A DNA stretch of 64,000 nucleotides, the filler included, from Jimgerdemannia flammicorona (taxonomy: Eukaryota): NCBI GenBank assembly GCA_003990765.1. It is 3 parts of 3 records of this genome, joined end to end, with 100 filler letters (N's around TTAATTAATTAA, not from the genome) between each part and the next. Parts side by side here need not be neighbours in the genome. Positions count along the whole stretch, not along the records: positions 1 to 21,459 come from RBNJ01001446.1; positions 21,560 to 43,014 come from RBNJ01001447.1; positions 43,115 to 64,000 come from RBNJ01001573.1. One strand, written 5' to 3'. Under the pieces are notes generated by a model. The model searched no databases and had not been told where the DNA came from. It saw only the letters and a list, made by a program, of their open reading frames with translations. Below, piece by piece: positions 3,319 to 58,927 of the stretch. The translations under genes were made by a program, and so were the position numbers. How positions within the stretch are numbered: the first letter of the stretch is position 1; each line of letters begins with the position of its first letter.

Positions 3319-4394
3319 ATCAGAAGAAGGGTGTCCCAAGGAACTATACTCTAAAGGAAGCTCCTCAGACCATCAAAACACAAAAAGACCTTATCTGAAA
3401 AGAATATCAGAAAGCCCATCAGAGATAAGTAAATATAGAGGAAAAGTTGTGAACTACACACCAACATTGGCACAACCTCAGAATACAAGTCCAGGACATA
3501 CTCAAGAAATGTGACACCTATCAGAAGTACTAAGGAAAGAAGAACTACCATGCATCATTATAACTAATTATACCACTAGACAACATTTTTCAGAGATGGG
3601 GAGTAGATGTAATTAAACCTCTACCAGTTATATCAAGAAGAAACAAATATATTCTTATATTTGTAGAATATCTGACCAAGTGGCTCAAGGCTTTTCCAAT
3701 GGAAATTGCAGATGCCTTAACCATTGTAGGCCTCCTCTATGGACTCACACTCAGATATAGACCTCCAGAAGAACTTATCTCTGACTGAGGCACAGAATTC
3801 ATCAACAACATAATCACAAGTTATGCCCAAATTCACAAGATCTACCTCAAAAAGACTATATCATACTACTCTCAGACCAATGGCATGACAGAGAGAATGA
3901 ACCAGACCATTAAGAAAGGACTTGCCTAAGTCAATCCTACTAATTGGGACCACTACTTACCTGAGATCCTATGGGAAATTTAGAATACCCCTGCTGCCTC
4001 CACCAAACAAAAGCCATTCAAAATGATATTTGCCAAGAAAACCAGAACTACTGACCATGAGAATCTTGGAGACCTCCTCAAGAAGACAGAATAGTTATAT
4101 AATCAAGTCTGAGGACAGATTATCAAAGCCCAAGAAAGACAAAAGAAGTACTATAACCAAAAACAGAAGGATCAGGAGATCAAGATTGGAGATCAAGTAC
4201 TAGTTTGGAGAAGTATGATTGAAATGAATTTTTCTGCCAAATTGGAACCCAAATGGGAAGGACCTTATCTTGTATATAACATCAGAGGAACTAACAACTA
4301 TTTAAGAAGCATGGATGGACAATCTCTGAGAACACCAGTATACATCAATTACCTCAAACTATATTTTCCCCTATACCATAAGCCAAAGGATTGA
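3315..4394 (+). pseudogene. Family A integrase, in a different frame from RNase H
   Basis: Decayed HHCC zinc finger (..KKCDTYQK), FQRWGVDVI, ELISD*GTEF, QTNGMTERMNQTIK, KLEPKWEGPY. Confidence 0.9.
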
Positions 4395-4893
4395 TCAGCA
4401 CCTCCAGACATTGGTCCTCAGCTCCTTCCAGGCCCTACTAGTTTCTCTACCTCAATTCAGTCAAGCCAATGGAAACCCCCTTCAGAAGATCCAAGTTCAT
4501 CAAGAAAATCTCACCTTGGCCAGGCACCTACTACAAGTCCACCAGCTGCAGGCCTATTATGCAATTGGCAAACAATTGCAGAACCTTCCAACCCCAGAGT
4601 AGACTTATATCAGGAATACCACAGGTCTGACCAGGAGAGACACTACTACTACAGACAGACTATACACCATTTATAAATGAAATGTCACAGCTCTGATATA
4701 AGCACAGTTCTCTCTGAACAATATTCAAGAAATGAATCCTGTTACCTATTTGAGTATCATCAATTCTGTCAAAATTCTATTCTCCAAAGAAGAAGAAGAG
4801 CCCATAGAATAGAGTGATCCTAGTACAGACAATAAAGATGATGGAGCAGGTATAGATACAGAAGCAGCCTATGCTTATTGGAATAATGACTAA
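4378..4893 (+). pseudogene. Family A accessory ORF (~170 codons) between integrase and PPT
   Basis: Single frame with four internal stops consistent with C>T or G>A decay. Reads LQAYYAIGKQL...TTTDRLYTIY...EEEEPIE*SDPSTDNKDD. Probable start ATA (decayed ATG) overlaps the integrase end. Confidence 0.65.
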
Positions 4894-4920
4894 AGAATAG
4901 TCTGGGACAGACCATCCTTT

Positions 4921-4932
4921 AGTGGGGGCTAA
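4921..4932 (+). other. Polypurine-tract-like sequence of family A
   Basis: AGTGGGGGCTAA immediately precedes TGTAA (LTR start). Confidence 0.6.
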
Positions 4933-6635
4933 TGTAATAAGACCAAAATGTACCACCCAAATTATAACTTAGCCAGATGACATGAACAATTGGCATACTT
5001 AACCAGATGACACAGGCTCCCAGCATGACATCCAATGTATCATAGTTATCCATACTACCACATCTATAATTAGCTGGACATACCAGATAGAGTCTGTTTA
5101 CCTGTATAGACTCTATACACCATACAGACTCTGTATACTGTACTAGTGCTCCCAAACAAGTCAAATCAATTCAAATCGAATTGAATTGAGGGTTAAACGA
5201 GTCGAATTGAATTGGAATCAAATTGAGGGTCTGATTTGAACCCTAAATTTCAAAATGCAATAACTCGGCGTAAACTCATCCAAATCTAATGTTCTTTAGC
5301 TTGTTAGAATCACATTAATACGGTGAATCTAACAAGCTAAAATACGTTAAATTTGGATGAGTTTTCGTCGAGTTATTACATTTTGAAAATTAAGGTTCAA
5401 ATTGAACTTCGAATCGAATTGGACCCTTGATTCGATCAAATCAAATCAAGTTTGGGCCAAATTCGATTCGATTCGATTCATTGGGAGCACTATACTGTAC
5501 AGGACCTGTTCACTATACAAACTCTGTACACCTGCCATAAGTAGAAAATCTATAATTAGCCACATAGTAACCAGATAGCAATCATGATATATAAATTACC
5601 CCAGAGACAAGAGTGAATAAACCTCAGTCTGAAAGTTGAACACAAACCAAAGCAAAAGTCAATTTTCTGGTATACTTAGGAGAAACACCTGCCAAAAGCC
5701 ACTTGATCCAGAAAGGATTGCAATACTTAGGAGATATGCCTGCCAATGAGCCACTGCCAAGAAGTTGTGAGCTTGGTTCTCTTCTCTTCCACTCTGGTCC
5801 ACTTTCTGATATAAAGAATGAGTCCATTTTTGGTTTGCTTGCCAGATAAGTCTGAAGATTTGCTGTCTAAGTACTTTGCCACTGTTTTCCAGTTAAAGCG
5901 ACTGATTCAGGAAGAATCTGCACCAGTAGTATTCTCAGTTGAAGTCACCAAATCAGATGAATCCACACCACTCAAGTTATTTTCCAGAAGCCTGCTGATT
6001 CTGAAGAGTCTGCATCATCTGCTATTTTTGAGTTATCTATATTTCCAAAGAACTCATGCCATCTGAGTAGTACTCTCAGTTGAAACCGAACCCACAATAT
6101 CCAAGTTATCCAAGTTATCCAAATTATCTGCCACTAAGTTATTCATTGTTCCCAGTGAGCCTGAGAAGAACCTGCTGCTAGTATAATTCCCAAATGTCCT
6201 GTATAAGAAATCTGTCATACTACACAAAGATTGCCCACTATCCAAGAAGGAGAACCACTAAATTACCAGACTATCACACACAGAGATCATTGCACTACAC
6301 AGAGATCGCCACACAAATTGTATAAGAAAAACCACCAAATTGCCAGACCATCATACATAAGGAAGATTGTCATACTATACATAAATTTCTACCAATTCCC
6401 AGTTGACCCAAGAAGGAAATCTATTCACATACAAATCACTGCTATACCTAGAGAATCATCCCAATAAGAAAATCACTTACAGATATCCAGCTTTGAATAT
6501 TATACCACTAAACACCAAAGACCTCAGGAATCTTAGAATATTTTGTTGCTTTTTGATAAAGTAACTGGGGGTTCAAGCCAAACTACATTAACCACCAACC
6601 TTATAATTTGCCTCTATTAAGCCAGGTATATTACA
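4933..6635 (+). repeat. Family A 3' LTR (contains a MITE insertion)
   Basis: TGTAA...TTACA ends. Homologous to 20173-21411 and 51294-52349. TATAAA and AATAAA near 5590-5621. Confidence 0.9.
5144..5492. mobile_element. Foldback MITE, hAT-like (12-bp TIR, 8-bp TSD)
   Basis: TIR TAGTGCTCCCAA...TTGGGAGCACTA. TSD TACTGTAC at 5136-5143 and 5493-5500. Long internal inverted arms around ~5315. Confidence 0.9.
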
Positions 6636-7680: not shown

Positions 7681-7689
7681 AGCCAAATA

Positions 7690-8860
7690 AAGTAGTCTGG
7701 CTAAAGAATTCAACATTGGCCTAGGAGGTGTAGCCATTTTGAGATGGCAACTCAATATATATATCAATATATAACTTATATCATTTTATCAAATTTATGT
7801 CATTTATTAGTAATATATGAAATATACAACCTATGTAACTTCAATAAAGTATCTCTCTTATACTATAAAGGTTATAGGCTCTATTAGTACTTAGCAATAA
7901 TAATAATAAATACATCTCTTTAAAATATACTATACTAGAAATGTCTGATGAATAGTCTAGTAATATAAGTACAGAAATAGATATACTAATCACAAGTATT
8001 CCTATAGGTATAACTATAACAATAACTACAATAAGTATGGGAAGCACAGTCCCAGTTATAAGCATAAATATAGCCAAGAGGTCTATCTCAATCTTTGATG
8101 GGAAATATTATATAATCTGGGCATTCTATATAATAAATCTCCTTGATAAATATGTATAGCTTAGCAGAGTATACAAAGTTACAAGCACTGATTCAAGATT
8201 ATGATAGTATAAATGACTATCAAGTATTATACAAGATTATATTTATGCTATCTAACTCCCAAACAAAGCTTATAATATATATAGTAATTACTCACAAGAT
8301 ATGAGAGACTCTATACAATCACTATGTACAAATATCTATATTGAATCAATTTCATCTGAAATCTCAGTTATTCAATCTATGAATGAAGCCAAAGGAGACT
8401 ATCTATAAATATGTCAGTTACATTGATAATCTGGTAAATTAGATAAATTTTCTAAGTATATTAGTACAATATATAAGCAATAAAGACAAGGTTTTAGCCC
8501 TTATAAGAAATCTCTCTGAAGCTATCATGTTGTAGTAGTGGTTATGTGGGAGAGTAGCAAACTCACAGATTATACCTATGTCATAATGAGCCTCATAAAT
8601 AAGAAAATATATCAAGAAAACAGTACCACTGATAATGACAAAAATATATTCTATAGGTTGCTTGGACATAGTACCAAATGAGGTCAAAAATATAAACAAC
8701 AAGGTCAATGAACTCAAATCCAAAATCAATATAATGGCAGTCAATCAATCAAGTATGATAGTTACTATAAATACTATGATAAGTATGAACATAGAAAGTG
8801 TAACTATTATGTACTATTGGAAAAATGATAAGAAGAGTAGTGAAAATAAGCATAGAAGTT
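7690..8860 (-). mobile_element. Decayed Gypsy integrase remnant related to family D
   Basis: 8170-8340 aligns by eye with 53280-53440 (GAGTATACAAA...GATTCAAGATTAT); integrase-core-like on the minus strand. Confidence 0.6.
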
Positions 8861-8864
8861 AGTG

Positions 8865-11368
8865 TCTATGTTACAGCAGATGGTACACAAGCTACCCCCC
8901 TTGGCAAAATCCAAGAAGTCCCTATCAAGATAGGAGGAGCTACCATTCCAGTAGACATGATTGTTATAAGCACCACCAACTATGACATCCTCATTGGCAA
9001 TCAATGGCTTCACAAGGCCAAGGCCATCATTGACCTCAATGCCCAGAAGATATAGATCAACTACAGAGGAAGAAAGGTACGAGTTTCTATCAATGTCTAT
9101 AAAGGAGTCCTGCCAGACATAGAGGAAGGAGATGAAGAAGACACAGAGATCTTTATGCACTCAGTGAACAAGAACAAGAACAAGACACCCAAGCTCACAG
9201 ATGAGCAGTGGTATAACAAGAACATTGATGGGTATACCCCTCAAGGAAGATGCCTCCATGGTACTAGAATGTACTGCTCTGAACACCTGAATGACTGCTG
9301 GTCCTGTATCAGTGAAGTCAGGAAAATCTGCCAACAGAAACACATGCAAGAAGCTGCTGAAGCAAAAAGGAAAGCTGAAGAAGATGACCAGCCCCCAGAG
9401 CTTCAAGCTGGCAGTGACAATGAGGAGAAACAAGAATCAGACATCACCCTCAAGGTCAAGAAGTTTCACCCTGAAGCCAAGATCCCAGAATACAAGACTG
9501 AAGGAGCCATAGGAATGGACCTTACTAGCATCCAAGATGCTACCCTCAAACCACAGACCACCACTCTACTTGGCACTGGAATTGGAGTCAAGTTGCCAGA
9601 AAACCATACTGGAATTATCAAGACTAGGAGCATTCTGGCCAAAAGTGAAATCTCAGTTGAAGGAGGAGTAATTGACCCTAATTACACTGGCGAGATTTTT
9701 CTCATAGTCAGAAATCACAACCACACCACCCCCTTCGAAGTCAAGAAGCATGACAGGATTGGCCAGATGCTGATCCACGAAATCAAGAAGCCCAAGATCA
9801 TAGAAGCCACTGAACTTATCAAGACTAAGAGAGGAGAACAAGGCTTTGGATCTACTGGAAGAGGAGTCTATACTGCCACCAAGATTACAGAACTTGAGTA
9901 CAAGAAAGGCAAGGACCAGAACAAGCACACATATACCATTGGAGAAAACTTTCCCCTGGAGGAACAACTTCTCAAGATCCTCTACCAGAACAAAGGAGTA
10001 CTTGCTACAGACTTTAGGGATATCCACAATCAAGAACCCAAGTACTATACTGGTGATACCAAGCCTATCTATCAGAAAGCCAGACCCATACCACCTGCCT
10101 ACAGAGAGTGGCTACAAGCCAAACTCAAGGAAATGAAAGAAGCCAGAATCATCAAGCAAGCTATCAGCCCCTGGGCCTCACCCATTGTCCTTGCCCCAAA
10201 GAAAGGAAGCAAGCCTGGAGAGTTTGCACCAAGACTCTACATTGACTACAGAAAACTCAATGCCATCACCAAGAAGGATAGGCAGCCCTTGCTGAATATT
10301 CAAGAAATCCTTACCATCCTTGGAAGTAAAGCCAAATACTACACCACCTTGGATCTGTTCTCAGGCTTCCATCAGATCGGTCTTACTCAAGATGCTAGTG
10401 AGAAATCAGCCTTCATCACACCTAATACCACCTATATCTATCTGCAAATGCCATTTGGAATGTGCAATGCCCTAGTAAGTTTTTAGCAAATGATGAACAG
10501 AGTCTTCAGTAATGAGATTGGAAAATGGCTCTTTGTCTATGTTGATGATGTGATCATCTTCAGCAACACTGCATGGGAATATATCAATCACATATAGCTA
10601 GCACTCAAGAGGCTCTAGGAGTATGGCCTCTACATCAAGCCTAAGAAATGTAAGTTTGTAGCTCAAGAAATCACCTACCTAGGACACCTCATCAACCAGA
10701 CTGGAATCCACACAGACCTCATGAAGATCGAGGCTGTTGCAGCCTACCCGAGATCCAGAACAACTATAGAAGTCCACACCTTCCTTGGACTGTCCAGCTA
10801 CTATAGAAGATTTATCAAAGGATACTCCAATATTGCAGTATCTATCTATGAGCTACTGAAGAAGGAGACCAAATTCAAATGGACCAAGGAGTGCCAAGAA
10901 ATCTTCAATGAACTCAAGATCAGGTTGACCCAAGCACCCATCCTCAGAAGACCAGACTGGAACCTAGAATTCATCCTGCAGACAGATGTGAGTGCTATAG
11001 GACTTGGAGCAGTCCTAGCTCAGAAGAAAGATGGACATGAATATGTCATCTCTTATGCAAGCCGAGGTACCTGTAGAGTAGAACAGAACTATGAGTCATG
11101 CAAGCTTGAATGCTTAGTGGTAGTTTGGGCAGTATACAAGTTCCACTACTACCTAGCCGGAAAACACTTCACCATTCAAATGGACTATTCTGCTCTTGTC
11201 TGGCTATTCTACACTCTGAACCCCAAAGGAATATATGCCAGATGGATCTACAGGCTGCAAGAGTATGACTGTACTGTCAAGCACTGCTCAGGAAAGACCA
11301 ACACCAATGCCGATGCACTCTCAAGGACACTCTGAAACACCCCCATCAAGACTACTCAACATGAATAA
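8865..11368 (+). pseudogene. pol: Family B pol: protease end, Cys/His linker, dUTPase (~9440-9860), RT, RNase H
   Basis: GAIGMDL, GGVIDPNYTGEI, RGEQGFGSTG, WASPIVLAPKK, YVDD at 10538, FILQTDVS, NADALSR. Confidence 0.95.
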
Positions 11369-12608
11369 GGAGCTATACTATGGATTAATCAGCTACCTTG
11401 GGCAGCAGAAGATGCCCAATCACCTCAAACCTTGGACAATCACCATCATCAACTGGACTTGGAAACAGTTTGAATTAGACAACACTATACTCAGAAAAGG
11501 AGGAAAGCTAGTAATACCTGAATATAAGAAGTATCATGTAATGAAGGAAGTACACAAGCAAGGACACTTAGGAGGAACCAACACATATAACAAGGCAAGA
11601 TGAACCATGTGGTGATCCAAGATGGAAGAAGACATGCGCCAATTTGTCAAAGGGTGTGACAAGTACCAAAAACAGAAACAAGATCAGCAAGACCAGGCAT
11701 CCGGATCATGAAGAATTGAGCCTATCTCCTTCCACCACATCGCAATGGATATCATTGGACCACTACCAGTAATACTATCAGAAAACCACTATATTATAGT
11801 TATTGTAGACCTCTTCACCAAATGGATAGAGGCAGGAGCACTACAAGAAGCCAATGCTCTCTCTATAGCTTACTTCCTACACTAAGAAATCATCTGCTGC
11901 TACAAGACACCAAAGCAAATCACAACAGACCACAGTACAGAATTTGTCAATGGATTCCACGAGATAATGTATCAGAAATACAAGATCCAGCACATCAAGA
12001 CCACTGCATACCACCCTGAAGGAAATGGACAGACAGAGAGAACCAATAAGACCCTCAAGAATATCCTGGCGAAGATCTCAGAGACATATGAGAATTGGGA
12101 TAACTATCTCCCAACTGCCCTCTCTATTCTATAAGACATATGGTCACAGAGCACACATTCTTCTCCAAGAGAGCTGCTCTTCAGAGAAGAAGATTCTGAT
12201 GGAACCTCAGCCACAAATCTAGATCTAACTTGGAGACAGGTTGATGCAGAAATCCAGAGACTACACTAAATCAGGAAGAAGGCTGAAGATTACATCACCA
12301 AGTTATAAGCACTGACAAGGAAGAATGCAGAAAAGAATCACAAGGCCCTAGAACCCATCTGAATCAGAGAAAAGGTTCTACTCTATTGAAATATGGTAGA
12401 AGCCTCATGGTTGCAAAAACTGGAGCCCAAATGGGAAGGACCCTTCTATGTGCAAGATATCAAGGGAACTACCTTCTAGCTTAGAAAAATCTCAGAGACC
12501 ATACTGTCTACCATGGTACATAGAAACAGACTCAAGAAGTATCATGAACCTATACAAGAGAAGCAAAACATGATGACTACCCATGAGGTTCTAGTCCATG
12601 AATCATAA
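11361..12608 (+). pseudogene. Family B integrase as a separate ORF starting MNKELYYG
   Basis: HKQGHLG...CDKYQK, HIAMDIIGPLP, TAYHPEGNGQTERTN, KLEPKWEGPF. Frame is +1 relative to RNase H. Confidence 0.9.
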
Positions 12609-12921: not shown

Positions 12922-14418
12922 TGTAATGGTGACCCCAGAATGATGACATCAGTACCGGAGACAGCCTTTCCTTACAAGCTACCAGATCAGAGCACAAGAA
13001 GATCCTACAGCATACGAGATGAACAATGATGACCAACTATGAGTCATTGTGACCACAGCACAAGCATCCTGAAGAATATAAAAGAAGGATCAAGGAACCA
13101 CAGTAGCAGCAACCAATAAGAACCACCAATCCCAAAATAGCTCAAAGACTTACCATAAACAAAATGCCTGCTACACACCAAACCTCAAGGTCAAGGAATC
13201 ACCAAGGTATCTCAGTTGAGGAAAGGATGTTCCAAGACATCAGAAGAGCCATGAGGACCTGCTCAAGAAGGACTCCTAGTGTCAACCTGGGTACTGCAGA
13301 CCCTTATCACTTCATTCTCTACTGCTGTGAAATGGAAACAAGGATCACCATTGCTACCAAATGCCTCCAAATGTGGCAGAAGTATGAAATAGGAAACCTC
13401 CTCTACTGGGAGTTCCCATAGGCCAGTACTCAAGAGCTACAAGATGCCACTCTCATGGATATATGTGAAACAAGGACAGCTAAGAAGATCCATCAGATCT
13501 TCAGACATGCACCATAGTCAATCTCCAACTTGGAGTATGTTAGAGTCTCAGACTTCAGAGATCTATCATCCTGCCATATCAATGCACTAGAAGCCAGGGT
13601 GGCTATAGAAGCCTGGTCCACTATCACCCTCAACAGTGAAGTAGAAGACTTCTGGCACTCTATCCTTCAGGACAACTCAGACCAATTTCTGCAAGGATTG
13701 ATCTCAGTATTCCAAGGCCCAAGCATCTGGGTTAGATCTCCCCAAGACCCCACATTTGTTCCTTATTTTGTGGAAGAGAACCTCATAGACTGGAGAGCTC
13801 CAGACCTTATTCCTGATTTCCCCACCACAGCTGAATGTGATGATGTCATCAGTGATGACATCATCCTATGCAATATACACAAAATGCATGACCTGTATGA
13901 TGAATTCATGGATCTCATCTCCTTCAGTGATGATGATGATGAAGCCCCCATGATTCTGAACTTTCTACTCTAAGTTCTTTATTATACTAGATAATACCAG
14001 TACCAGTATTCTGAGGTGATGCAAAATTGTTCCAGCACTGGCATTTTGATGTAATACTAAATAATGTCAGCATCCTGAACCTGTACAACCATCAGTACCA
14101 ACTCTAGAACTTAGTTGTTTTAGTTATTGGAATTTATATTTAGCTTTATATCTTAGCAACCATTGAATTATATTTTGTATAAATACCCCTCTTATTTCCT
14201 CTGGAATAAAGTCAGTCAATTCAGTACATTTAGTCAAGTGCAATATATACACTTCCTTGCAAGCAATCTAAGAGATAACAAGATAGTTAAAGATAAGAAG
14301 TTTGAGGACTATAAGACCTTGGGAAGGCACTCCAATAAGAACTTGCTTATAACAACTTGAGTTAGTCTAAGAGATACACCTTGGCATATTTGAAGGACTC
14401 AGTGACTACTATATGACA
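12922..14418 (+). repeat. Family B 3' LTR (~1.5 kb)
   Basis: TGTAA...TGACA ends, follows the PPT, three copies in the window. Confidence 0.93.
13164..13973 (+). pseudogene. LTR-encoded accessory ORF of family B (~269 codons)
   Basis: ORFs 13164-13421 and 13530-13973 share a frame. The internal stops are sense codons (Q, W) in the other LTR copies. Acidic C-terminus. Confidence 0.8.
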
Positions 14419-14649
14419 ATATATATTCAGATACAATATATACATTTTTGATAAAAACAATGCCAATCAGTATAAATTTGAGTCAAAAGCTAGCAAGAAT
14501 ATATTTTTTGGATATTCTGGCATCAGTAAGATATATAAACTCTGGAATCTATATAACTGATATATCATCATTTTATATAACATATAATTCAGAGAAAAAG
14601 AAAATAAAGAATCTCATGTAGATATATCTATCAATATATCTATATCTAT

Positions 14650-16159
14650 TGTCACATAGTAGTCACTGAGTCCTTCAAATATGCCAGATTCTCTTCAAGG
14701 TATATCTCTTAGACTAACTCAAGTTTGTTATAAGTAAGTTCTTATTGGAGTGCCTTCCCAAGGTCTTATAGTCCTCAAACTTCTTATCTTTAACTGTCTT
14801 GTTATCTCTTAGATTGTTTGCAAGGAAGTGTGTATAAGTGAAACTGGAACTGACTTTATTTCAGAGGAAATAAGAGAGGTATTTATACAAAATATAATTC
14901 AATGATTGCTAAGATATAAAGCTAAATATAAATTCCAATAACTAAAACTACTAAGTTCCAGGGTCAGCACTGATGGTTGTATAGGTTCAGGATGCTGGTA
15001 TAATTCAGTGTCACATCAGAATACTGGTGCTGGAATAATTTTGCATCACCTCAGAATGCCAGTACTGGCATTATCTGATGTTACTCAAAATACTAGTGCT
15101 GGCATTATTCAGTGTAACAAAGAACTTAGAGCAGAAAGTTTAGGATCATGGGGGCTTCATCATTATCATCATCACTGAAGGAGATGAGATCTGCGAATTC
15201 ATCATTTTCACATGCCTCAATATCATATGGGATGACATCATTACTGATGATGCCATCACATTTAGTGGGGAAATTGAGAGCTCTCCAATCTATGAGGTTC
15301 TCTTCCACAAAATAAGAGACAAATGTGGGGTCTTGGGGAGATCTAATCTGGATGCTTGGGCCTTGGAATACTGAGATCAACCTTTGTAGGAATTGGTCTG
15401 GGTTGTCCTGGAGAATGGGATATCAGAAGTCTTCTACTTCATCACTATTGAGGGTGATAGTGGACTGGGCTTCTGTAGCCACCCTGGCTTCTAGTGTATT
15501 AATACAGCAGGATGACAGATCTCTGAAATCTGAGACTCTAACATACTCTAAGTTGGGGATCAACCATGGTGCATGCCTGAAGATCTGATGGATCTTCTTA
15601 GCTATTCTTGTCTTGCATATATCCATGGGAGTGGCATCTTGTAGCTCTTGAGGGCTGGCCTGTGGAAACTCCCAGCAGAGGAGGTTTCCTATTTCATACT
15701 TCTGCCACATTTAGAGGCATTCGGTAGCAATGGTGATCCTTATTTCTATTTCACGGTAATAGAGAATAAAGTGATAGGGATCTGTAGTACCCAGGTTGAC
15801 ACTAGGAGTCCTTCTTGAGTAGGTCCTCATGGCTCTTCTGATGTCTTAGAACATCCTTTCCTCAACTGAGATGCCTTGGTGATTCCTTGACCTTGAGATT
15901 TGGCAGGCAGCAGGCATTTCATTTGTAGTAAGTCTTTGAGCTATTTTGGGGTTGGCAGTTCTTGTTAGTTGTTGCTACTGTAGTTCCTTGATCCTTCTTT
16001 TATATTCCTCAAGATGCTTGTGCTGTGGTCACAATGACTCACAGTTAGTCATCATTGCTCATCTCATATGCCATATGATCTTCTTGTGCTCTGATCTGGT
16101 GGCTTGCAAGGAAAGGCTGTCTTCTGTGCTGATGTCATCATTCTGGAGTCACTGTTACA
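14650..16159 (-). repeat. Family B solo LTR with 4-bp TSD CTAT
   Basis: Reverse complement of the B LTR; CTAT on both flanks; Copia sequence on both sides. Confidence 0.92.
15126..15917 (-). pseudogene. LTR-encoded accessory ORF, solo-LTR copy
   Basis: MWQKYEIGNLL...RIAKKIHQIFRHAPW and ...DDDNDEAPMILNFLL in the ORF track. Confidence 0.8.
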
Positions 16160-17565
16160 CTATATTCAGCTAGTATAAGTACAATAACTATCATCAACCT
16201 CTTCAGTAGTCAATCAAAATTATTTTCAACTGCTATATATATCTGAACTAGAGTTGTCTGAATCAAGAATAATAGATATCAAAGATATAGATGACAGCAG
16301 ATCTAATACTGAGGAATCCTCTACAAAGAATAAGCAAAAGTATTCCAATATTTGCCAAGAAACTTATTCCAAATTAAGAAGTTATTAGGACATACTAGTG
16401 AGCTTTAGACAATAGCAATAAGACTATATGAGCTATACTGAAGCATTCAAATATATATATATATAATATCTAGTAAGCTAAATATATATAATGAAGCAAT
16501 GCAATTCCCAGATAACAAAAAATAGAAACATATAATAGATGAGAAATATGATTCACTTATTGAGAATGACATATGGAATCTTATACCCTTTCTATTAAAT
16601 TGCTAAATAATTGGATCTAAGTAGGTCTATAGAATCAAGCACAAGAGTTATAGAAGTGTAGAGTAATATAAAGCTCATTTTATTGCTAAGAGTTATTTAC
16701 AGAATTATAATATAGATTATGATGAGATATTTTTATAGTATTCAAGCTTACTTCACTTAGAATACTCCTTGCAATTGGTATACTATATGACCTGAAAATC
16801 TATCAAATAGATATTAAGACAGCATTCCTGAATAGTGATGTAGACACTAAACTACATATATATCTATCACTACAAGAATATGAATTATACAACAATAAGT
16901 GAAAGAAGCTCATATGTAAACTATATAAAAGATTATATAGTATCAAACAAGTGATATAACTATGGAATAAAAGAATTGATAAATATCTTTTTAATAATAG
17001 ATTTACCTACTGTAAAGCAGATAATTGTATATATATTCAGTATTATAATAATGGCAGTATAGTCTTCATTGGTATCTGGGTTGATGATATAATTATTATT
17101 ACTAGTAAAAATAGGCTTAACAGAGCTAAAAAAGCCCTATGCTGAGAATTCAGAATGATAGATATGGGTAATGCATTCTTCCTTTTAGAGATATCTATAT
17201 ATCATATATAATAGAAATACATGTGCCATATATCTCTCATAAGTGATATATGCTTAAACAATTCTTAAATAATTCAATATGAATGAATATAAGCCTGTTA
17301 GTACTCTTATGGATACTTTTATAAAGTTAAGAAAGCCAGATACTATTTCTGAGGATGACAACAATATGCTAACCAAAACAGTATCAAAGATATCATATCA
17401 GTAAATAGTTAGTTTTCTTATATATCTTATGCTAGGAACAAGGCCTAACATATTATATACTATGAATAAGATAGCACAGTATTCTTTCTGCTATTATAAT
17501 TTATATTAAAGCACTATTAAGAAAATATTTAGGTATCTTAAGGATATAATATATTATATACTTAT

Positions 17566-18011
17566 TGTGATGGTACAGCCAAATTTGGAAGAAGGAAATA
17601 GGGAATAGACATTTGATCACACCCAGTCCCAAAGTAGTATAGCCTTATAGTTAGCAGTTCTTGATTTCGACATTGTCTAAATTCTTAGACATTATCCAAA
17701 TCAAATGTCCTAATTTAGTATAGTATTTAGACATTGTCCAAATATTTTGACAAAGTCCAAATGACTCATTTATTACTTAGCTACCCTCTCATAGCTAGCA
17801 AACTTATATAAATAACCCAGTATCTTGGAGTGAATAAACCTCAGATTGAAAGTGTTAGAAAAGAACAAATATACCAATAAAAGGACCTTCGGGATTACCT
17901 CTTTAAACACATTTGGCCTCAAGGAACTACTGACTCTGGGAGTCAAGAAGACAAGAATTCAAGATAAAGAAATCTGACATACTTGCCCATCTTAGCATCT
18001 GCTATGTTATA
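17566..18011 (+). repeat. Family E 5' LTR (~446 bp)
   Basis: TGTGA start where Copia homology stops. Ends TGTTATA (decayed TGTTACA) just before the PBS. TATA and AATAAA at ~17807-17837. Confidence 0.75.
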
Positions 18012-18014
18012 ACT

Positions 18015-18032
18015 TGGTGCCCATTGGCTGGT
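18015..18032 (+). other. Primer-binding site, family E (TGGTGCCCATTGGCTGG)
   Basis: TGG 3 nt after the LTR end; near-identical motif at 58931. tRNA identity not determined. Confidence 0.75.
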
Positions 18033-18086
18033 GATTCAAGATGAATCCCTCACTTTCAAGCTGAACAATGAACAACTGTAACCAGA

Positions 18087-21411: not shown

Positions 21412-21413
21412 TT

Positions 21414-21431: not shown

Positions 21432-21459
21432 GATTTCAAAATCGATGTGACTTTTCAGC

Positions 21460-23430: not shown

Positions 23431-23439
23431 AGTGGTCAG

Positions 23440-35840: not shown

Positions 35841-35859
35841 ATGAACACTTCTTCATATA

Positions 35860-43014: not shown

Positions 43015-43114
43015 NNNNNNNNNNNNNNNNNNNNNNNNNNNNNNNNNNNNNNNNNNNNTTAATTAATTAANNNNNNNNNNNNNNNNNNNNNNNNNNNNNN
43101 NNNNNNNNNNNNNN
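43015..43114. other. Artificial contig spacer
   Basis: 44 N + TTAATTAATTAA + 44 N. Confidence 0.97.
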
Positions 43115-52399: not shown

Positions 52400-55300
52400 T
52401 TTATATATATAATTATAGCTGTTGTAGATATCTGATACAGTATCTAAATATTTTGATACTTATATAATAGTGACCAAAATGCTACAAGATTATATAAACT
52501 CAATTTTGTAACAATATTTTATAATATGATAAACTCTATTAATTCTGATCATTGAATGACTTAAGTCAGATATTAATAGAGTATTGGCTATTACTAGTCA
52601 CTACTATCAAATAAATCAATATTAATAACTGAATTCCCTAAGAGATAGCTTTATCTAAAAAAGTTTAAAGAAAATCCTCATTATGAACTCAGAAATAAAA
52701 TCATTATAGTTCAATATATTATTTATCTTTCTCTCTCTTTATTGATATCTCTTCTTTATAATTTGTCACAATATTCTCTAAAAAAAACTATCTCAGAGAC
52801 TCAGGTTTTTTATTGATAATATTATAGAAATTGTTTAAATATTATTAAAATTTCTATTATTTTAACATCTTAATAATGTAGCTTATATAACTATATTATC
52901 TTTGAGTTATATTACTTAATATATAAATATATACTATATATCTGGAATAATAAACAATACTCTCTCTTCTCTTTACTTTATATTTTAATTAAGATACATA
53001 TAATAAAGGTTATAAGCCTTACTTAGTAGCTAATAAGAAATACTTTTCTAAGATTATATACTACTCTATACTAAGATATCAGTATAGATAAATCAAGAAG
53101 TCAGTATAAGTACACCAGCTATAGCAGATATGGATATTCTCAGAATAGATATAATAATTATAATTTCTATAGCAAATGTAAAAATAGTTAAAAGATCAAT
53201 TTCTATTTTTGATAGTAAGAATTATACTATTTAGATATTCTATATAAGTAATCTTCTGAAGAAGTATGTATAACTTGACAGAGTATACAAAACTACAGGT
53301 ATAGATTCAAGATTATAATACTGCAAATAATTACTAAGTATTATGAGAGATTATATTTATATTATCAAACTAGTAAATAAAGCTTATAATATATACTATA
53401 ATAGTCTATATAATATATGAAAGACTCTATATAATTATTATATATAGGTTGAGTGTTGATATACTTGAGAGATTGATAGTCAGTAATGATATCAAACTCA
53501 ATATCTTCTATATAATATCATTAGTAGTCTAGTGTATATATTATTACTAATAGTTCCTTCTTATAGATAACTAGCTTTTATTTAGTAGAGGCCAACTTGT
53601 GGACTCAAAAGTAATAGAGCAATGTCTTTTGCCATTATCTTATGACAGAACTACTCTAATAGCAAAATTCAATATATTAGTGGTGACCATAAATTTTAGG
53701 CTTTGATCTACATTATATAGGACTGGAGTATAGATTAAGCAGTTCTTGAGTTCTTGAAAAGTTTATTAACAGAAGAGATCTCAGGTATAAGGTACATAGT
53801 GATCTAAGTATAGGATCTTTCTTATAAAATTAGTTAGTGGCTTAGTAATGCTAGAGAAGTTTCTGATAAAGTGATAGTAGTAGCTAGCTAGACCAAGGAA
53901 GAATCAAAGTTCTGTGAGATTTGATAGAATAGGCTATTCTTAAATTACCTCTATCTTATGTAGGTCTACTTGAATTTCTTATACAGAGATAATATGGCTA
54001 AGATATTTAAATTATTTCTTAAAGAATTTATACTTCTTAAGCTTGATATAAAGCTTGTGTTTTTACAGAATCTTCAGAACTATTTGAATATATTTAAGGT
54101 ATTCTTCTTTAATTATATTAAAGATCAGGATATTGTTAAGATATATCAATAGAAAAATAAATAGTTAGTCCTTAAATATCTTATTCATCAAGGTCTGGAA
54201 TATAGCAAGTGCATTGGTGAGACTAAATGCTAAGATCAGAAATTTGTAAAGTCCAAAGGAGGTTATGAATATAGTCTTGAAAATATCTTCTAGCTTGATT
54301 TAAATCTAGTGATATTCTGATATAAAGTCCAACTTAGTGAAATACTTGGCATCCTTGAGAGTATCAAAGATTTGATCAATCAAAGATAATAGATAGCAGT
54401 TCTTGACAGTGAGCTTGTTAAGTATATAGTAGTCTATGTATATATATTTACAGATTATTATCCTTCTTCTTAATGAATAAGACTGGTGAGCTATAAGGAG
54501 ATTTGCTTGGCTGAATGACTTCTCATATAAGTAATTCTTCTAGTTCCTTCTTGACTGTTTCAATTTCAAGTGGTAATATACAGTATATATATTTCTTGAG
54601 TAATATGTATAGCTCTTGGGGTCAGTTTAATTTCATGATCAACTTCTCATATAGGCAGTAGATCAGGTAGTTTGTCTGGAAAGACATCCTTGAATTCTTC
54701 TAATAGTAACTTGATACTTTTATTGATTAATAGTTTCTGATCTTGTTTCTTGGGACAGACTATTGCAACAAAGATATGCATTGCTTTCTTGAGTGCTTTT
54801 TTATACTATATAGCTGATAGTATTGCAATCTGGGTCTTGCTCATAGTATTGTCTATCTTAATAGTGATATTGACTCTGTCTTAAAGTAAGATGACTTCAT
54901 TCTTATACCAATCAATGTCTGAATTGTGTTTTATAAATCAGGGTTTTTCTAAGATTAGATTATAATCTCCTAGTAGTGCAATTTTGAAGTTTACTCATTC
55001 CCAATATTTCTGAATCTTGATGAGTAGTTTGGCAGCAATTGACTTGATGGAGTGCAGTATACCATCTGTAATAACTATACTATTGTTCTTGAGTGCAGAC
55101 TTGGTAAGAATCTTGAGGCTTTCTATAAGATTCTGATTGATGAAGTTCTCTATAGCTCTACTGTCTATGAGTACTTGAACTTCTTTTCCTTTGACTAGGT
55201 CTTTGAAAATGAGCATAGCTTGAGCTTGATTTTCAATAAGACTTGCTACTTAATCAGTACTACCAAAATCTTTTTAGTCTCATTTAGTTTCAGAGAGTTC

Positions 55301-56900
55301 TTAGACTTCTGTCATCTTAGATTAATTGGCTTTTTCTAGGATCATTTGCATGACTCAGTCTCCTTCCTTGACTGTATAGTTTTAATCCTTCTGATTGTTA
55401 AGTAGAACTTGAATTTGTTCTCAAAAGTCTGGGTTAATAATTTCAGTATCTATATCTAAATAATGTTTGACACTGAGTTCTGATTATGGTATAATTCTGA
55501 TATAATGTCCTTTAGGACATTAGACTACAATTCCAGTAGGCACCAGAGTTCAGTCCTTGGTTGAAATAGTGACTTATTTGACAGAGTATAGATTAAGACC
55601 AATAGCTCCTTCTGTTTGATATTGAGGAGCCTGGGTCTTTAAGTGAAGCTTCTTGATTTTGAGCTTAGATTAACTGGTAGTAGAATTGACAGGTATATCT
55701 TTGGACAATATAGTGACTGGTCTCAAAGGTTCACTAGTCTTCTTAGGATATTTGATTATAATATATCCTATTTGATAATAGAAAAAATAGACTCTAAATT
55801 TCTTCAGATAGTTCTTTTCTTCAGAGATAAGCTTGGTATTCTTTTTGTTCATAGTATCTAAATCTATTGATGCTAGGCCAACTGTCCTTAGTTGGTTTCT
55901 GTGGTAGTTCTCAAAGTGGTTCTTCTTGTAGTATTCTAGTTCAAAGTAATTACTGAAGGTAATGATATCAAATCTATCAGCAATTCTCATGGCTTTATTA
56001 AGACTTTATGGCTCTTCTAGCTTGACCTTGACTTGTGTGTTTCTCTTCAGACCTTGGACATAGTGGTCTATCTTTTTATTCTCAGCTATTACTAGTAATT
56101 TGAGTAAGATTGATAGGAATTATATATTATTGCTTTATACAGACTTGAGTTGCTTGATATTTGCTAGCTTATCTCTGACTAGCTTAGTAGTATTAGCAGA
56201 CTTGAACTACTTGTGAAGAGCTCTCTTAAAAACTTTTCAATATTTGATTCATATATTTAAGTATATAAATATATATAGTTATAATGTAATTATAGTATCA
56301 AATAACTATATTTCCTCAGAGAAGTGTGGCAGCAAATTGGACTTATATATCTTTTTCCATTCTTGTGAGCTCAAAGTATTAGTCCAATTGGAAGGTCCAT
56401 ATATCTGAAGATAGTCCTCCCCAGTGACTGTTAAAGATATCTAGCTTGAGTAGCTTGAAACTGACTAATATTATAGCAGAATATAATGTACTCATAGTTC
56501 TTGTTTTCTGCTAGTCTAGTTGTACTTGAAGTACTTAGATTTAGTGGGCCATAAAGGTGATCATATCCTCTATGCTGACTTATAGCTCTCTTGCTTCTTC
56601 TATAATAAAGAGATCTAGCTAGTAGGCTGATTCTTTATAGCCCATTTTAGATTTATGTAACTAGTTATAACTAGTTTCTGAATTTGTATAGAGTTTCTTA
56701 ATAAAGCAGGATATAATGATACTACTACTATCAAGTATAATTGTTCTAGTTTCTTTAAGAGGAAGCAGCTAAATCTAGAAGTTCTGGTTAGTATAAAGTA
56801 GCTCAAAGAGATACTTAAAGGTTCAAGTGTTCTCAAAATATTTCTGAGAGAAAATATTCTAAGCTTTATTCAGGTAGAGAATAAGAATATTTATATATAA
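52400..56900 (-). mobile_element. Ty3/Gypsy family D: gag-dUTPase-protease-RT-RH-INT, decayed
   Basis: VLIDSRAIENFI protease (54995-55216), [32 protein letters not shown]; integrase remnant 52500-53450. Confidence 0.82.
55290..55650 (-). pseudogene. dut: dUTPase of family D, between gag and protease
   Basis: GAIGLNLYSVK*VTISTKD*TLVPTGIVV*CPKGHY; IINPDF. Confidence 0.75.
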
Positions 56901-57179
56901 TCTGAAAGTAAGATCTGGAAGGAAAGAGAAATACTAAGAAATAGGTTCTTGATAAAGCTAACTAATATAATTCTACAATATTCTGAAAAGTTCTATAACT
57001 AGCTAAGATAAGATACTTGGTACCAAGAAAAGACAAGAATTCTAGTAGTGTCTGGGCACCAAGAGGAGATTTCTAAGTAAGTAGAAGATGGCAGAATATA
57101 GTAGAATGTTCAAGAAATAATAAGAAAAGACTAGCTAAAAGATATAAAAATATACTAAAACTAAATATAACTACTCAGC

Positions 57180-57415
57180 TCTTATCTAATTACTAATTAT
57201 TGAGTAACCTAAAGGAATCTATATCAGATAGACTATAGAGTTGTAATCCTATAATATAACTATTATGTACTACTCTGGAAGAACTAATATCAATATAGAT
57301 ACTCTCTCTAAAGGACCTCTAACCAGTAAACTGACTATAAATAAAAAGCTTTACTATAGAATTATCACTTACTTAGAACAGTAAAAGATACCCCAATATC
57401 TAATAGAATGAATAT
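57180..57415 (+). mobile_element. Old B/E-like RNase H-integrase junction fragment into which family B copy 2 inserted
   Basis: Resembles 11200-11420. Confidence 0.6.
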
Positions 57416-58927
57416 TGTAATAGTGACTCCAGAATGATGACATCAGTACAGGAGACAGCCTTTTCTTGCAAGCCACCAGATTAGAGTATAAGAAGATCAT
57501 ACAGCATATGAGATGAGCAATAATGACCAACTATAAGTCATTGTGACCACAGTATAAGCATCCTGAAAAATATAAAAGAAGAATCAAGAAACTACAGTAG
57601 TAGCAACCAACAAGAACCACCAATTCCAAAATAGCTCAAAGACTTACCACAAACAAAATGCCTGCTGCCTACCAAACCTTAAGATTAAGGAATTACCAAG
57701 GTATCTTAGTCAAGAAAAGGATGTTCCAAGACATCAGAAGAGCCATGGGGACCTGCTCAAGAAGGACTCCTAGTGTCAACCTGGATACTGCAGACCCTTA
57801 TCACTTTATTCTCTACTACCACAAAATGGAAACAAGGATCACCATTGCTACCGAATATCTCCAAATGTGGCAGGAGTATGAAATAGAAAACCTCCTCTAC
57901 CAGGAGTTCCCACAGGCTAGCACCCAAGAGCTACAAGATACCACTCCCATGGATATATATGAAACAAGAACAGCTAAGAAGATCTATCAGATCTTCAGAC
58001 ATGCACCATGGTCAATCACCAACTTGGAGTATGTTAGAGTCTCAGACTTCAGAGTGTCATCTCACTGTATCAATGCACTAGAAGCCAGGGTGGCTACAGA
58101 AGCCCAGTCCACTATCACTCTCAACAGTGAAGAAGTAGAAGACTTCTGGCACCCTATCCTCCAGGACAACCCAGATCAATTCCTGCAAGGATTGATCTCA
58201 GTATTCCAAGGTCCAAGTATTCAGATTAGACCTCCCTAAGACTCCACATTTATTCCCTATTTTGTGGAAGAGAACCTCATAGACTGGAGAGCTCCAGATC
58301 TCCTTGTTCCTGATTTCCCCACTACAGCTGAATGTGATGACATCATTGGCGATGATGTCATCTCATATGACATCGACATATGCGAGATGTGTGATGAAGT
58401 ATATGAAAATGATGAATTCATGAATCTCATCTCCTTCAGTGATGATGATGATGAGGATGAAGCCCCCATAGTTCTGAACTTTCTGCTCTAAATTCTTTGT
58501 TACACTGGATAATACCAGCACTGGTATTCTGAGGTGATGCGAAATTGTTCCAGCACCAGCATTTTGATGTGATACTAAATAATGCCAGCATTCTAAACCT
58601 GTACAACCATCAGTACCAACCCTGGAACTTAGTAGTTATTGGAATTTATATTTAGCTTTATATCTTAGTAACCATTGAATTATATTTTGTATAAATACTC
58701 CTCTTATTTCCTCTGAAATAAAGTCAGTTCTGGTTTCACTTATATACACTTTCTTGCAAACAATCTAAGAGATAACAAGACAGTTAAAGATAAGAAGTTT
58801 GAGGACTATAAGACCTTAGGAAGGCACTCCAATAAGAACTTGCTTATAATAAACTTGAGTTAGTCTAAGAGATATACCTTGAAGAGGATCTGGCATATTT
58901 GAAGGACTCAGTGACCACTATGTGACA
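57416..58927 (+). repeat. Family B 5' LTR
   Basis: TGTAA...TGACA followed by the PBS. Confidence 0.93.
57658..58491 (+). pseudogene. LTR-encoded accessory ORF, 5' LTR copy (single internal stop)
   Basis: 193-aa and 75-aa ORFs in the same frame, separated by TAA where copy 1 has CAA. Confidence 0.85.

Follow-up and report, generated by a model that had tools for sequence, protein, structure and literature searches.

Mouse mammary tumour virus (MMTV), a retrovirus of vertebrates, encodes its superantigen Sag, which is a membrane glycoprotein, in the LTR, and the VANC proteins are anti-silencing proteins of the plant VANDAL transposons, which are DNA transposons. Among LTR elements that bear a dUTPase, the Juno, Vesta and TelKA elements of bdelloid rotifers possess diverse ORF3s, which are env-like proteins, GDSL lipases, DEDDy exonucleases and coiled-coil or transmembrane (TM) proteins (PMC5408684). 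Fungal Gypsy elements have also been drawn with an 'add. ORF' (PMC2864245). The CERV protein of the Caenorhabditis elegans Gypsy element Cer1 acts in trans on the RNA of the element and is produced from a spliced mRNA (PMC10309623). Antisense ORFs with a TRP28 domain are described for plant Retand elements (PMC11963269).

Here, we analysed a stretch of 64,000 nucleotides from Jimgerdemannia flammicorona (the window), in which a sequence-only reading had proposed that three distinct dUTPase-bearing Gypsy lineages (A, B and C) share one uncharacterised accessory protein family. A dUTPase was indeed present in all three lineages, and their distinctness was borne out by pol proteins of only 28-39% identity and by different sequences just past the LTR ends. 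ORFs A and B, whose positions and lack of a known family were established, are real, conserved and uncharacterised accessory genes of dUTPase-bearing Ty3/Gypsy elements. We give an even chance to the account as a whole, in which A and B are accessory genes, ORF B forms a gene cassette, the genes probably share an ancestor and their proteins serve as regulators or adaptors.

Like the ORF3s and additional ORFs of other LTR elements, these are extra sense genes after pol in Gypsy-type elements with the dUTPase between PR and RT; such genes are family-specific, their function is often unassignable, and an ORF type is sometimes common to unrelated lineages. In contrast to the rotifer ORF3s, the A, B and C proteins match none of the ORF3 types (no Pfam match, no TM segment), and the lineage B gene lies inside the LTR rather than between pol and the LTR. 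In this respect ORF B resembles MMTV Sag, both being complete coding genes within the U3 part of an LTR, which gives an integrated element one copy at either end; unlike Sag, its protein has no hydrophobic anchor, and there is no sequence match. No Pfam match was obtained for the ORFs, B had no match among PDB sequences at E ≤ 10 while A gave only noise (E 0.65-1.7), and ESM-Atlas returned no named neighbour above lead level, which agrees with the description of the proteins as uncharacterised.

Lineage B is represented in the window by three copies of an LTR of ~1.5 kb with the ends TGTAAT...TGACA, with a polypurine tract before the element's 3' LTR and a PBS-like TTGGTGCC after its 5' LTR. 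LTR ends, polypurine tracts and PBS-like sequences were all read directly, and the earlier placement of gene B in the LTR is correct. Copy 1 is a 3' LTR (12922-14426, + strand) with the polypurine tract AGGAGGAAGA just ahead, and its ORF B (13164-13973, +) has two internal stops and an HMM i-E of 5.2e-116. Copy 2 (14645-16159, - strand) lacks both a polypurine tract on its 5' side and a PBS on its 3' side and is probably a solo LTR; its ORF B (15126-15917, -) has three internal stops. Copy 3 is a 5' LTR (57416-58927, +) followed by the PBS-like TTGGTGCCTATTGGCTGG (58930-58947) and then by gag-PR-dUTPase-RT-RH-IN; its ORF B (57658-58491, +) has one internal stop, and 57604-58239 is open. At 57416, the depth of metagenome contigs rises from ~1 to hundreds in all four runs (three studies), and loose metagenome contig ends ahead of this position read the polypurine-tract flank. 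With the LTR boundary upstream of it, ORF B (~270 codons) lies in its entirety within the LTR, at positions 243-1076 of ~1,510 (the 5' two thirds). Reverse transcription consequently places a copy of the gene at either end of the element, and a solo LTR still retains it.

The frame of ORF B is kept across ~870 nt in the three window copies. Within the ORF, the length of every one of the 12 indel runs is divisible by three, as opposed to 5 of 11 in the stretch of the same LTR that lies 3' of the ORF, and at each of the six internal stops Q or W is found in the other copies and in intact relatives. Conservation within the window is 0.87-0.89 for the ORF versus 0.88-0.93 for the rest of the LTR, and copy-to-copy dN/dS is uninformative because ~96% of the mismatches are transitions. 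Intact relatives with 29-82% identity were found in metagenome protein sets. A word search matched four of 313 candidates (E 1.7e-118 to 2.8e-60), and an exhaustive search of 1.84 billion representatives yielded five matches at E ≤ 0.001, three of which are relatives with 33-42% identity and conserved motif columns. An intact, CpG-rich relative of 291 codons is found on metagenome contig L001.

With regard to lineage A, the pol frame could be read on the + strand from 1100 to 4394 (stop at 4392-4394), with dUTPase at ~1266-1500 (Pfam dUTPase, E 1.1e-13), RT at ~2200-2670 (RVT_1, E 2.5e-22), RNase H at ~2870-3160 (RT_RNaseH_2, E 8.4e-31) and integrase at ~3500-4040; it is 31-39% identical to B pol (tblastn with B pol as query). 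ORF A (4378-4893, +; 171 codons plus stop on translation) is internal and occupies the third-gene slot, after the integrase as the sequence-only reading had it and outside its own LTR. It starts 17 nt ahead of the pol stop, and its end is 39 nt away from the LTR, with the polypurine tract and LTR downstream. In the window copy, the start codon is ATA, and all four internal stops fall at columns with Q, R or W in the relatives. Five relatives were retrieved (E 8.5e-69 to 2.6e-18), the full-length ones, P0018 (171 aa) and P0019 (172 aa), having their stop at the same position as ORF A. The 3' LTR (4933-6635, +) reads TGTAATAAG...ATTACA with the purine-rich AGTGGGGGCTAA just ahead; both LTRs of the second A copy share this start, and the end, with the PBS-like TTTGGGGGCTCAACTGGG behind it, recurs at 21430 and 51290. 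A decayed second copy of ORF A (43978-44392, -; tblastn; A-core HMM i-E 5.7e-07) was found within an A-like element at 48482-44334. The A and B genes both occupy the 3'-terminal gene slot of their element, behind pol.

In lineage C, the copy 1 LTR (25422-27416, -; start approximate) is followed by the PBS-like TTGGTAGCAGTAG and then, on the same strand, by gag, dUTPase (23424-23011) and RT (22164-21565). Its putative gene, ORF C (26529-27056, -), has ~175 codons and four internal stops; the copy 2 relic (32652-33190, +), within an LTR at 32277-34057, has many stops and two frameshifts. The indels between the copies inside ORF C are of 1, 2, 4 and 10 nt and the identity equals that of the flanks (0.708), neither giving any sign of coding constraint, and the database search found no relatives of ORF C. 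A had been ranked as the weakest match; judging from relatives and frame conservation, this order is reversed, and C is the weakest of the three ORFs. It would be a degenerate remnant that shares the order of the motifs and the LTR position. The peptide strings quoted in the sequence-only reading are all present (YEIGNLL at 13383, +, and 15698, -; YEIENLL at 57877, +; YAIGKQL at 4558, +; IACKH...LSYGQIN at 26915-26808, -; YQIGHLL at 32706, +). Its coordinates 13164, 15917 and 57658 for B are exact Met codons, whereas 27300 and 32411 for C were ~300 bp off.

The earlier interpretation is supported as regards A and B being real and conserved, but no comparison among A, B and C reaches a standard threshold of significance for homology. 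BLASTP aligned B with C at E 0.12, through the C-terminal DLISF/DIIQF-acidic motifs, and B with A at E 25; A and C gave no BLASTP alignment. The profile tests of cross-lineage similarity ranged from P 0.004 to 0.17. The hhalign comparison proposed with the original claim gave P 0.004 for the B profile against C1, P 0.17 for it against C2, P 0.054 for it against A, P 0.068 for the B and A profiles, and P 0.015 for the A+B core against C1+C2. When columns were shuffled, the real score was reached in 2 of 100 trials for the B core versus the A core, 1 of 200 for the A+B core versus C and 12 of 200 for the B core versus C. With residue shuffles, 0 to 78 of 1000 trials reached the real HMM score for the B profile against four A proteins, and 25 to 397 of 1000 did so for the A profile against five B proteins. 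Nevertheless, motif order, register, gene slot and similar helix order suggest homology, and the descent of A and B from one ancestral gene is, on these sequence comparisons, somewhat favoured; descent of all three from one gene is plausible, though on balance doubtful.

It is possible, at a tentative level, that A and B are real but unrelated, each lineage having captured or invented its own third gene, and that C is no gene. The shared short motifs and acidic tails would then reflect chance and common composition, A-rich, CpG-depleted DNA giving helices rich in K, N, I, Q, E and D. The lack of significant pairwise and profile similarity agrees with this, as does the behaviour of the single-family core HMMs in the six frames of the window, where the B-only HMM misses every A copy and the A-only HMM every B and C copy. 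In the reciprocal test, the C profile recovers no A or B copy from the window; run on 13 relatives and their 13 reversed decoys, it gave best real E values (0.0027 and 0.0097) close to that of the best decoy (0.075). Further points in its favour are the out-of-frame indels and missing relatives of ORF C, the different placement of genes A and B relative to the LTR, and the absence from A of the ~70-residue block LQDNPDQ...GP.I...I.W, the best conserved part of B. Independent ORF3 capture is moreover documented for bdelloid rotifer LTR elements (PMC5408684). Against this, the weak alignments all share a single register and a single order of motifs (Y.IG..L, then A..(I/L)(H/Y)..(F/Y)(R/K)..P) with nearly equal spacing, and the shuffle tails are 0.5-2% in two key comparisons. 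With the A+B core HMM, C1 is the best match in all six frames apart from members of the A and B families (i-E 0.022, versus 0.094 with B alone), so that adding A improves the detection of C rather than diluting it. Sense orientation and the after-pol slot are also common to all three, and the helix order around the motifs is alike in the two AlphaFold models, both of which are poor.

The surroundings of ORF B suggest a self-contained cassette in U3, the promoter, poly(A) and U3 assignments being made from consensus motifs only. A first TATA box (TATAAAAG, 57571-57578, +) is found ~80 nt (79-86) ahead of the ORF B ATG in all three window copies and in L001. A 20-nt leader (57638-57657, +) abuts the ATG and is identical at 20 of 20 positions between copy 3 and L001, whose proteins are 43% identical; the expected number of chance matches in the window is 0. 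On the 3' side of ORF B, a second TATA box (TATAAATA, 58690-58697, +) and an AATAAA (58717-58722, +) are conserved in all three copies, and 58690-58722 is a candidate U3/R boundary. ORF B would be its own transcription unit in U3, apart from the promoter of the genomic RNA, for which the second TATA and AATAAA would occupy the expected position.

Alternatively, and with rather low probability, ORF B is not an independent cassette. It could be a long leader ORF ahead of gag on a full-length RNA starting at the first TATA box, or, in the manner of retroviral accessory genes, it could be translated from a spliced subgenomic RNA involving the 3' copy alone. No TATA box was found ahead of ORF A, which also overlaps pol, so that splicing or re-initiation must operate in one lineage or more; spliced messages are the typical source of accessory ORF expression in LTR elements (PMC5408684; CERV of Cer1, PMC10309623). 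The conserved leader could also belong to an acceptor or translational element. However, a TATA at a conserved distance, a leader preserved in a distant relative directly before the ATG and a second TATA/AATAAA pair where the genomic promoter is expected all argue for the cassette, and a 270-codon upstream ORF would presumably block translation of gag from the same full-length RNA.

The intact A and B relatives have 17-20 D+E in their last 60 residues, which confirms the acidic stretch noted after the core, and the tails of the A and B proteins follow a hydrophobic-x-F / acidic run / Pro-hydrophobic pattern. Neither a signal peptide nor a TM-grade hydrophobic stretch was found in the proteins, so the view that they are not env-like stands. 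Both are predicted to be helical; the AlphaFold models provide no fold evidence because both are poor (mean pLDDT 46.7 and 42.9). We infer that the A and B proteins are most likely non-enzymatic, trans-acting regulators or adaptors of the element's own expression. Within this role, transcriptional activation or counter-silencing is possible but unlikely, Rev/CERV-like RNA handling is less likely still, and other adaptor roles would account for the rest. The acidic tail and the extreme CpG depletion (o/e 0.04-0.16) would be in keeping with a transactivator or anti-silencing factor, as they would with other adaptor roles.

CERV and Rev-type factors would be comparable as small, novel, non-enzymatic accessory proteins, in the case of CERV from a Gypsy-type element, and represent one candidate function. 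Points of difference are that CERV comes from a spliced mRNA (PMC10309623) and that no sequence similarity to CERV, which has no Pfam family to search with, came to light. The Retand ORFs and VANC are alike in being element proteins from the region between pol and the 3' LTR, or accessory proteins with a proposed role in regulating the element or countering methylation by the host. Retand ORFs are antisense (PMC11963269), whereas ORFs A, B and C have sense orientation; VANC is a protein of DNA transposons, and no homology to Retand TRP28 or VANC was found. Finally, the notion that the ORFs are non-functional by-products, kept open by cis-acting conservation of the LTR or 3' region, agrees with the ORF part of the B LTR being no more conserved than its flanks in the window, but is very improbable and already close to refuted by the in-frame indels of B, by intact frames of 171-342 codons with conserved residue columns in relatives down to 29-42% identity, and by premature stops each of which is one transition away from a Q, W or R codon.

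We identified unassigned proteins, possibly of a single family, that are encoded in at least two Ty3/Gypsy lineages of the window, either just before the LTR or wholly inside it, which is what is new here. A conserved frame outside gag and pol, at a fixed position and kept between diverged copies, was found for the extra ORFs of lineages A and B (ORF A and ORF B), but not for that of lineage C (ORF C).

The window holds a nest of decayed LTR retroelements in which CpG is extremely depleted (observed/expected 0.04-0.16). Self-comparison and protein mapping placed the pol of element A at 1100-4394 (+), with a second, 70% identical copy at 48482-44334 (-), and element C at 27433-21565 (-) and 32277-36280. 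The internal copies of element B, 91% identical to each other, were mapped to 8810-12295 and 58928-64000, and its 1.5-kb repeat occurs three times. A fourth dUTPase/RT Gypsy fragment lies at 55627-53428 (-), and Copia pieces and one non-LTR RT are also present. The sequence-only reading had spoken of three distinct dUTPase-bearing Gypsy lineages. This is correct, since all three have a dUTPase between protease and RT, in the order gag-PR-dUTPase-RT-RNase H-integrase, while their pol sequences are only 28-39% identical. The dUTPase matched Pfam with E 1.1e-13 in A and E 3e-26 and 1.2e-26 in B, flanked by RVP/Asp_protease and RVT_1; by tblastn, that of the first C copy (23424-23011) shares 35% identity with its B counterpart, and it is followed by an RT. 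TG...CA ends, a polypurine tract and a PBS define the LTRs. The A LTR reads TGTAATAAG...TTACA and is followed by TTTGGGGGCTC..., whereas the C LTR has a decayed end (...TTATA, then TTGGTAGCAG) and a start that is approximate only.

The clearest case is ORF B. The B repeat starts with TGTAAT, ends with TGACA and is found at 12922-14426 (+), 14645-16159 (-) and 57416-58927 (+), hereafter copies 1, 2 and 3. The purine tract AGGAGGAAGA precedes it at the 3' end of copy 1, and the sequence after the repeat begins TTGGTGCC. Copy 3 represents a 5' end and is followed by the PBS-like TTGGTGCCTATTGGCTGG and then by gag. Copy 2, in the middle, has neither a purine tract nor a PBS and is therefore probably a solo LTR. 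ORF B occupies LTR positions 243-1076 (57658-58491 in copy 3) and thus lies wholly within the LTR. The three copies are 84-87% identical by blastn and share a single frame over about 870 nt, interrupted by one to three internal stops each. All six of these stops, which include TAA, TAG and TGA, fall on columns where other copies and database relatives have Q or W. Of the indel runs within ORF B, 12 of 12 were multiples of three, against 5 of 11 in the LTR sequence 3' of it.

Intact relatives support the same frame. A word-indexed search returned four among 313 candidates, with 63-79% identity and one of them full length at 271 aa, and an exhaustive search of 1.84 billion representatives returned five proteins at E <= 0.001, three of which are ORF B members (33-42% identity to the window copy, E 7e-38 to 4e-07). 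The JGI metagenome contig L001 carries a further member as an intact, CpG-rich ORF of 291 codons. In an alignment of eight members, with 29-80% identity to the first, the blocks WxEYEI(G/R), AKKIHQ(V/I)FRHAP, LE..VA...S.I and LQDNPDQ(F/W)LQ...F(Q/E)GP.I are kept, as is an acidic C-terminus with DLI(S/T)F and LNF. Close relatives also have an arginine-rich N-terminus (6 R in 12 residues in the relative P0009), which is not conserved in distant members or in A.

All four sequencing runs examined, which belong to three studies and comprise soil metagenomes and a coded organism, gave contigs over the B LTR, with summed depths from tens to thousands. At precisely 57416 the contig depth climbs from about 1 to hundreds, and earlier loose ends match the flank of copy 1 that holds the polypurine tract. 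The contigs mostly have C or G at positions that are T or A in the window, which, together with their high depth, indicates that the window copies are decayed members of an abundant family. A search of sequencing runs listed 13 rows, none of them RNA and all with small shares (<= 0.22), and in a scan of metagenome DNA one of 93 pattern matches was confirmed as a locus. The decay of B is almost purely C-to-T and G-to-A: each pair of ORF B copies differs by 91-100 mismatches, of which only 3-4 are transversions. Because about 96% of the mismatches are such transitions, copy-to-copy dN/dS is uninformative; differences per codon position (e.g. 32/21/41) show a mild second-position deficit only, and within the window the ORF B part of the LTR is not better conserved than its flanks. 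Taken together, ORF B is a real accessory gene in a real LTR. Right after its stop (58498-58640, and likewise in the other two LTRs) a 33-35-nt unit occurs in varying copy number; copy 2 has one additional 34-nt unit, and metagenome contigs show joints there that go back by 33 or 35 nt.

ORF A (4378-4893) is likewise a real accessory gene, located outside the LTR. It has five database relatives (E 8.5e-69 to 2.6e-18), two of which, of 171 and 172 aa, span the full length and share the stop of the window copy, and its four internal stops all fall on Q, R or W columns. The ORF starts 17 nt upstream of the pol stop (4392-4394) and ends 39 nt before the LTR, which begins at 4933 (TGTAATAAG). The bounds of this LTR were set by three starts and four ends of A-type copies, two of these ends being followed by the PBS-like TTTGG(G/A)G(G/A)CTCAACTGG. 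A six-frame profile search of the window detected no copy of the ORF in the 5' LTRs of A-type copies, which is consistent with its position outside the LTR. The string RIVWDRP after ORF A was considered as a counterpart of the B motif I.W..P and was rejected, as it lies beyond the stop common to both intact A relatives.

ORF C is the weakest of the three and doubtful as a gene. It lies about 360-890 nt into an LTR of about 2 kb, upstream of gag, and was found at 26529-27056 (-) (C1) and as a relic at 32652-33190 (+) (C2). C1 has four internal stops, and C2 has many together with two frameshifts. Indels between the two are 1, 2, 4 and 10 nt long, identity within the ORF is the same as in the flanks, and none of 24 database candidates for C1 reached E <= 1. 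The sequence-only reading had ranked A as the weakest match; this ranking is reversed, given the out-of-frame indels of C and its lack of database relatives as opposed to the five of A. Its proposal of an extra gene in each of three lineages holds for A and B, with their intact relatives, stops attributable to single transitions and, in B, in-frame indels throughout, but is doubtful for C. Every peptide that it quoted is present in the sequence, and its B coordinates are exact Met codons, although those for C are off by about 300 bp. Upstream of the ORF in both C LTRs (27380-27300 (-) and 32330-32400 (+)) there are two tandem motifs of about 30 nt with a TGAGTCA core, which we take to be a bZIP-type site.

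Whether these ORFs descend from one gene was addressed by several comparisons. Pairwise BLASTP gave nothing significant: B and C aligned with E 0.12 over the C-terminal DLISF/DIIQF-acidic stretch, B and A with E 25, and A and C not at all. With hhalign, the B profile gave P 0.004 against C1, 0.054 against A and 0.17 against C2, and the B and A profiles gave P 0.068. For the cores, A and B combined gave P 0.015 against C1 and C2, compared with 0.12 for B alone and 0.094 for A alone against C. Column shuffles reached the real score in 2 of 100 trials for the B core against the A core, in 1 of 200 for the combined core against C and in 12 of 200 for the B core against C. Residue shuffles reached the real HMM score 0, 8, 72 and 78 times per 1000 for the B profile against four A proteins, and 25, 28, 87, 331 and 397 times per 1000 for the A profile against five B proteins.

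The window was also searched in six frames. The only match of the B-only core profile outside its own family was C1 (i-E 0.094), A copies not being found; C1 was also the top match of the combined A and B profile outside both families (i-E 0.022). The A-only core profile found no B or C copy, and the C profile, which separates real relatives from reversed decoys weakly (0.0027 and 0.0097 vs 0.075), found neither A nor B. The profile alignments, marginal at P 0.004-0.17, keep one register throughout. A MAFFT alignment of the cores shows the motifs Y.IG..L and A..(I/L)(H/Y)..(F/Y)(R/K)..P, with a spacing that differs by one residue. AlphaFold2 models were poor (mean pLDDT 46.7 for B and 42.9 for A), and in both a long helix ends at Y.IG..L and is followed by a short helix and by a helix over the second motif. 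All three ORFs have a terminal hydrophobic-x-F core, an acidic run and a Pro-hydrophobic patch, and ORF A has no equivalent of the LQDNPDQ block of about 70 residues found in B. We slightly favour a common ancestry of A and B, and consider a single ancestry of A, B and C together plausible but rather less probable than not. The earlier observation is partly confirmed, and its interpretation is partly supported.

With regard to the nature of the protein, the previous description as uncharacterised and not env-like is upheld. Pfam gave no family for the ORFs in any frame of A and B or in the intact relatives, a PDB sequence profile search with A and B gave nothing usable, and the ESM Atlas gave no named family above lead level for either query. 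Some Atlas clusters (unnamed, Closter_coat, Translat_reg and DUF6192) came up both with A and with B, which is a lead only, and the Atlas model of an A relative (pTM 0.68) resembles long helical hairpins at TM <= 0.37 only. No env Pfam family was matched. Kyte-Doolittle means over 19 residues peak at 0.64-1.03 in the intact relatives of A and B and at 1.49 in C1; as there is no TM-grade segment and no hydrophobic N-terminus, the N-termini being hydrophilic, the predicted proteins are not env-like. The acidic tail with its hydrophobic core resembles a degenerate SUMO-interacting motif, whose consensus (PMC8616421) has hXhh or hhXh as its core, with I, V or L as h, and acidic or phosphoserine flanks. 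A relatives, with VEIL followed by F-P-EEEEE, fit the consensus quoted there strictly, whereas B (LISF with an S/E-D-rich stretch) and C (IIQF with DDEAED) have F at the fourth core position and fall outside it. We infer that the protein most probably has no enzymatic role and acts in trans, as a regulator or adaptor, on the expression of its own element. Within such a role, activation or counter-silencing appears a little likelier than RNA handling of the Rev/CERV type (PMC10309623).

The surroundings of ORF B suggest how it could be expressed. In each of the three copies, as in L001, a TATAAAAG box lies 79-86 nt upstream of the ATG, and copy 3 and L001 share all 20 nt abutting the ATG, despite 43% protein identity and poorly alignable DNA nearby. 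Downstream of the ORF, every copy keeps a TATAAATA box with AATAAA 20 nt further, about 200 nt short of the LTR end, and this pair is the one feature that would place ORF B in U3. The simplest reading is a two-promoter arrangement. A first promoter would give a short mRNA for the accessory protein, ending at the LTR's own poly(A) signal, and a second, downstream promoter would give the genomic RNA, starting past AATAAA. ORF B would then lie in U3, be copied to both ends in each cycle and still be expressible in solo LTRs. A whole ORF inside the LTR is seen directly for B, is likely for C and does not apply to A. Since ORF A has no TATA box and overlaps pol, its expression would require splicing or re-initiation. 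The first 130 nt of the B LTR also contain TGAGTCA and TGACATCA.

In L001 (regions 1-215 and 1252-1535), the ORF stop is followed by 10 nt of GGAGGGAGGA and then by TTGTAATAAG, which resembles the starts of the A and B LTRs. The next 270 nt are paralogous to the start of the contig (~215 nt), with a 33-nt block at 82%, so that LTR-start-like sequence flanks the gene on both sides. As a lead, L001 could be an intermediate between the A-type arrangement, with the gene before the LTR, and the B-type arrangement, with the gene inside it. A more complete scenario, which we regard as improbable as a whole, would involve an ancient non-enzymatic regulator of several dUTPase-bearing Gypsy lineages. 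A shift of the polypurine-tract/LTR boundary would have put the gene and its own promoter into U3 in some of them, with L001 as the intermediate. Every LTR, solo LTRs included, would then be an autonomous gene copy, whose protein would act in trans, activating LTR transcription or countering host silencing by CpG methylation.

Additional ORFs after pol are well known as a class in LTR retrotransposons, and most have no assigned role. Of such extra genes, to our knowledge, very few are found within the LTR itself; the MMTV superantigen is a gene located wholly within an LTR. Related cases have been described: diverse ORF3s common to several lineages of dUTPase-bearing elements in bdelloid rotifers (PMC5408684), fungal Gypsy elements depicted with an "add. 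ORF" of unknown function and, in basidiomycetes, with dUTPase (PMC2864245), and antisense TRP28 ORFs in plant Retand elements (PMC11963269). The open-access literature searched yielded no description of the present protein. The family is of interest as one that has no Pfam or PDB-sequence match, is conserved to about 30% identity and is abundant in soil metagenome contigs, and one lineage has an apparently complete promoter-ORF-poly(A) unit within its LTR. Should this B unit be expressed, the LTR would do more than serve as a regulatory repeat; gene dosage would rise in proportion to the number of LTRs, and active relatives could still benefit from solo LTRs. If A, B and C are homologous, they would represent a lineage-spanning accessory gene of fungal-type Gypsy elements, with a standing comparable to that of retroviral accessory genes, and a direct candidate for transposon counter-defence in a genome with almost completely CpG-depleted repeats.

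Several further features of the window were noted. The fourth Gypsy fragment (53428-55627 (-)) lies in very A+T-rich sequence (G+C 0.25-0.31), and none of the profiles detected a copy of the accessory ORF nearby. Copia-type fragments at 8215-8520, 14440-14605 and 16500-17200 matched Retrotran_gag_2, SH3_retrovirus and RVT_2, the Retrotran_gag_2 match being weak (E 1.3e-4, under the Pfam cut-off). B copy 1 is truncated at its 5' side against one such fragment, and two inverted B LTRs lie 200 bp apart within Copia sequence. A truncated B-like gag-protease fragment (17991-20198) is directly followed by an A-type 5' LTR with PBS-like sequence (20170-21459), which runs into N. Two N stretches (21460-21559 and 43015-43114), each with two blocks of 44 N around 12 bases, sit where elements meet. 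The A LTR contains a 169-nt palindrome (5234-5402) that matches its own reverse complement at 85%. Finally, the block at 38000-43000 is G+C-rich (0.51), strongly C-skewed and far less A+T-rich than the surrounding LTR elements, and contains a non-LTR-type reverse transcriptase at 38970-39635 (-) (Pfam RVT_1, E 5e-09).
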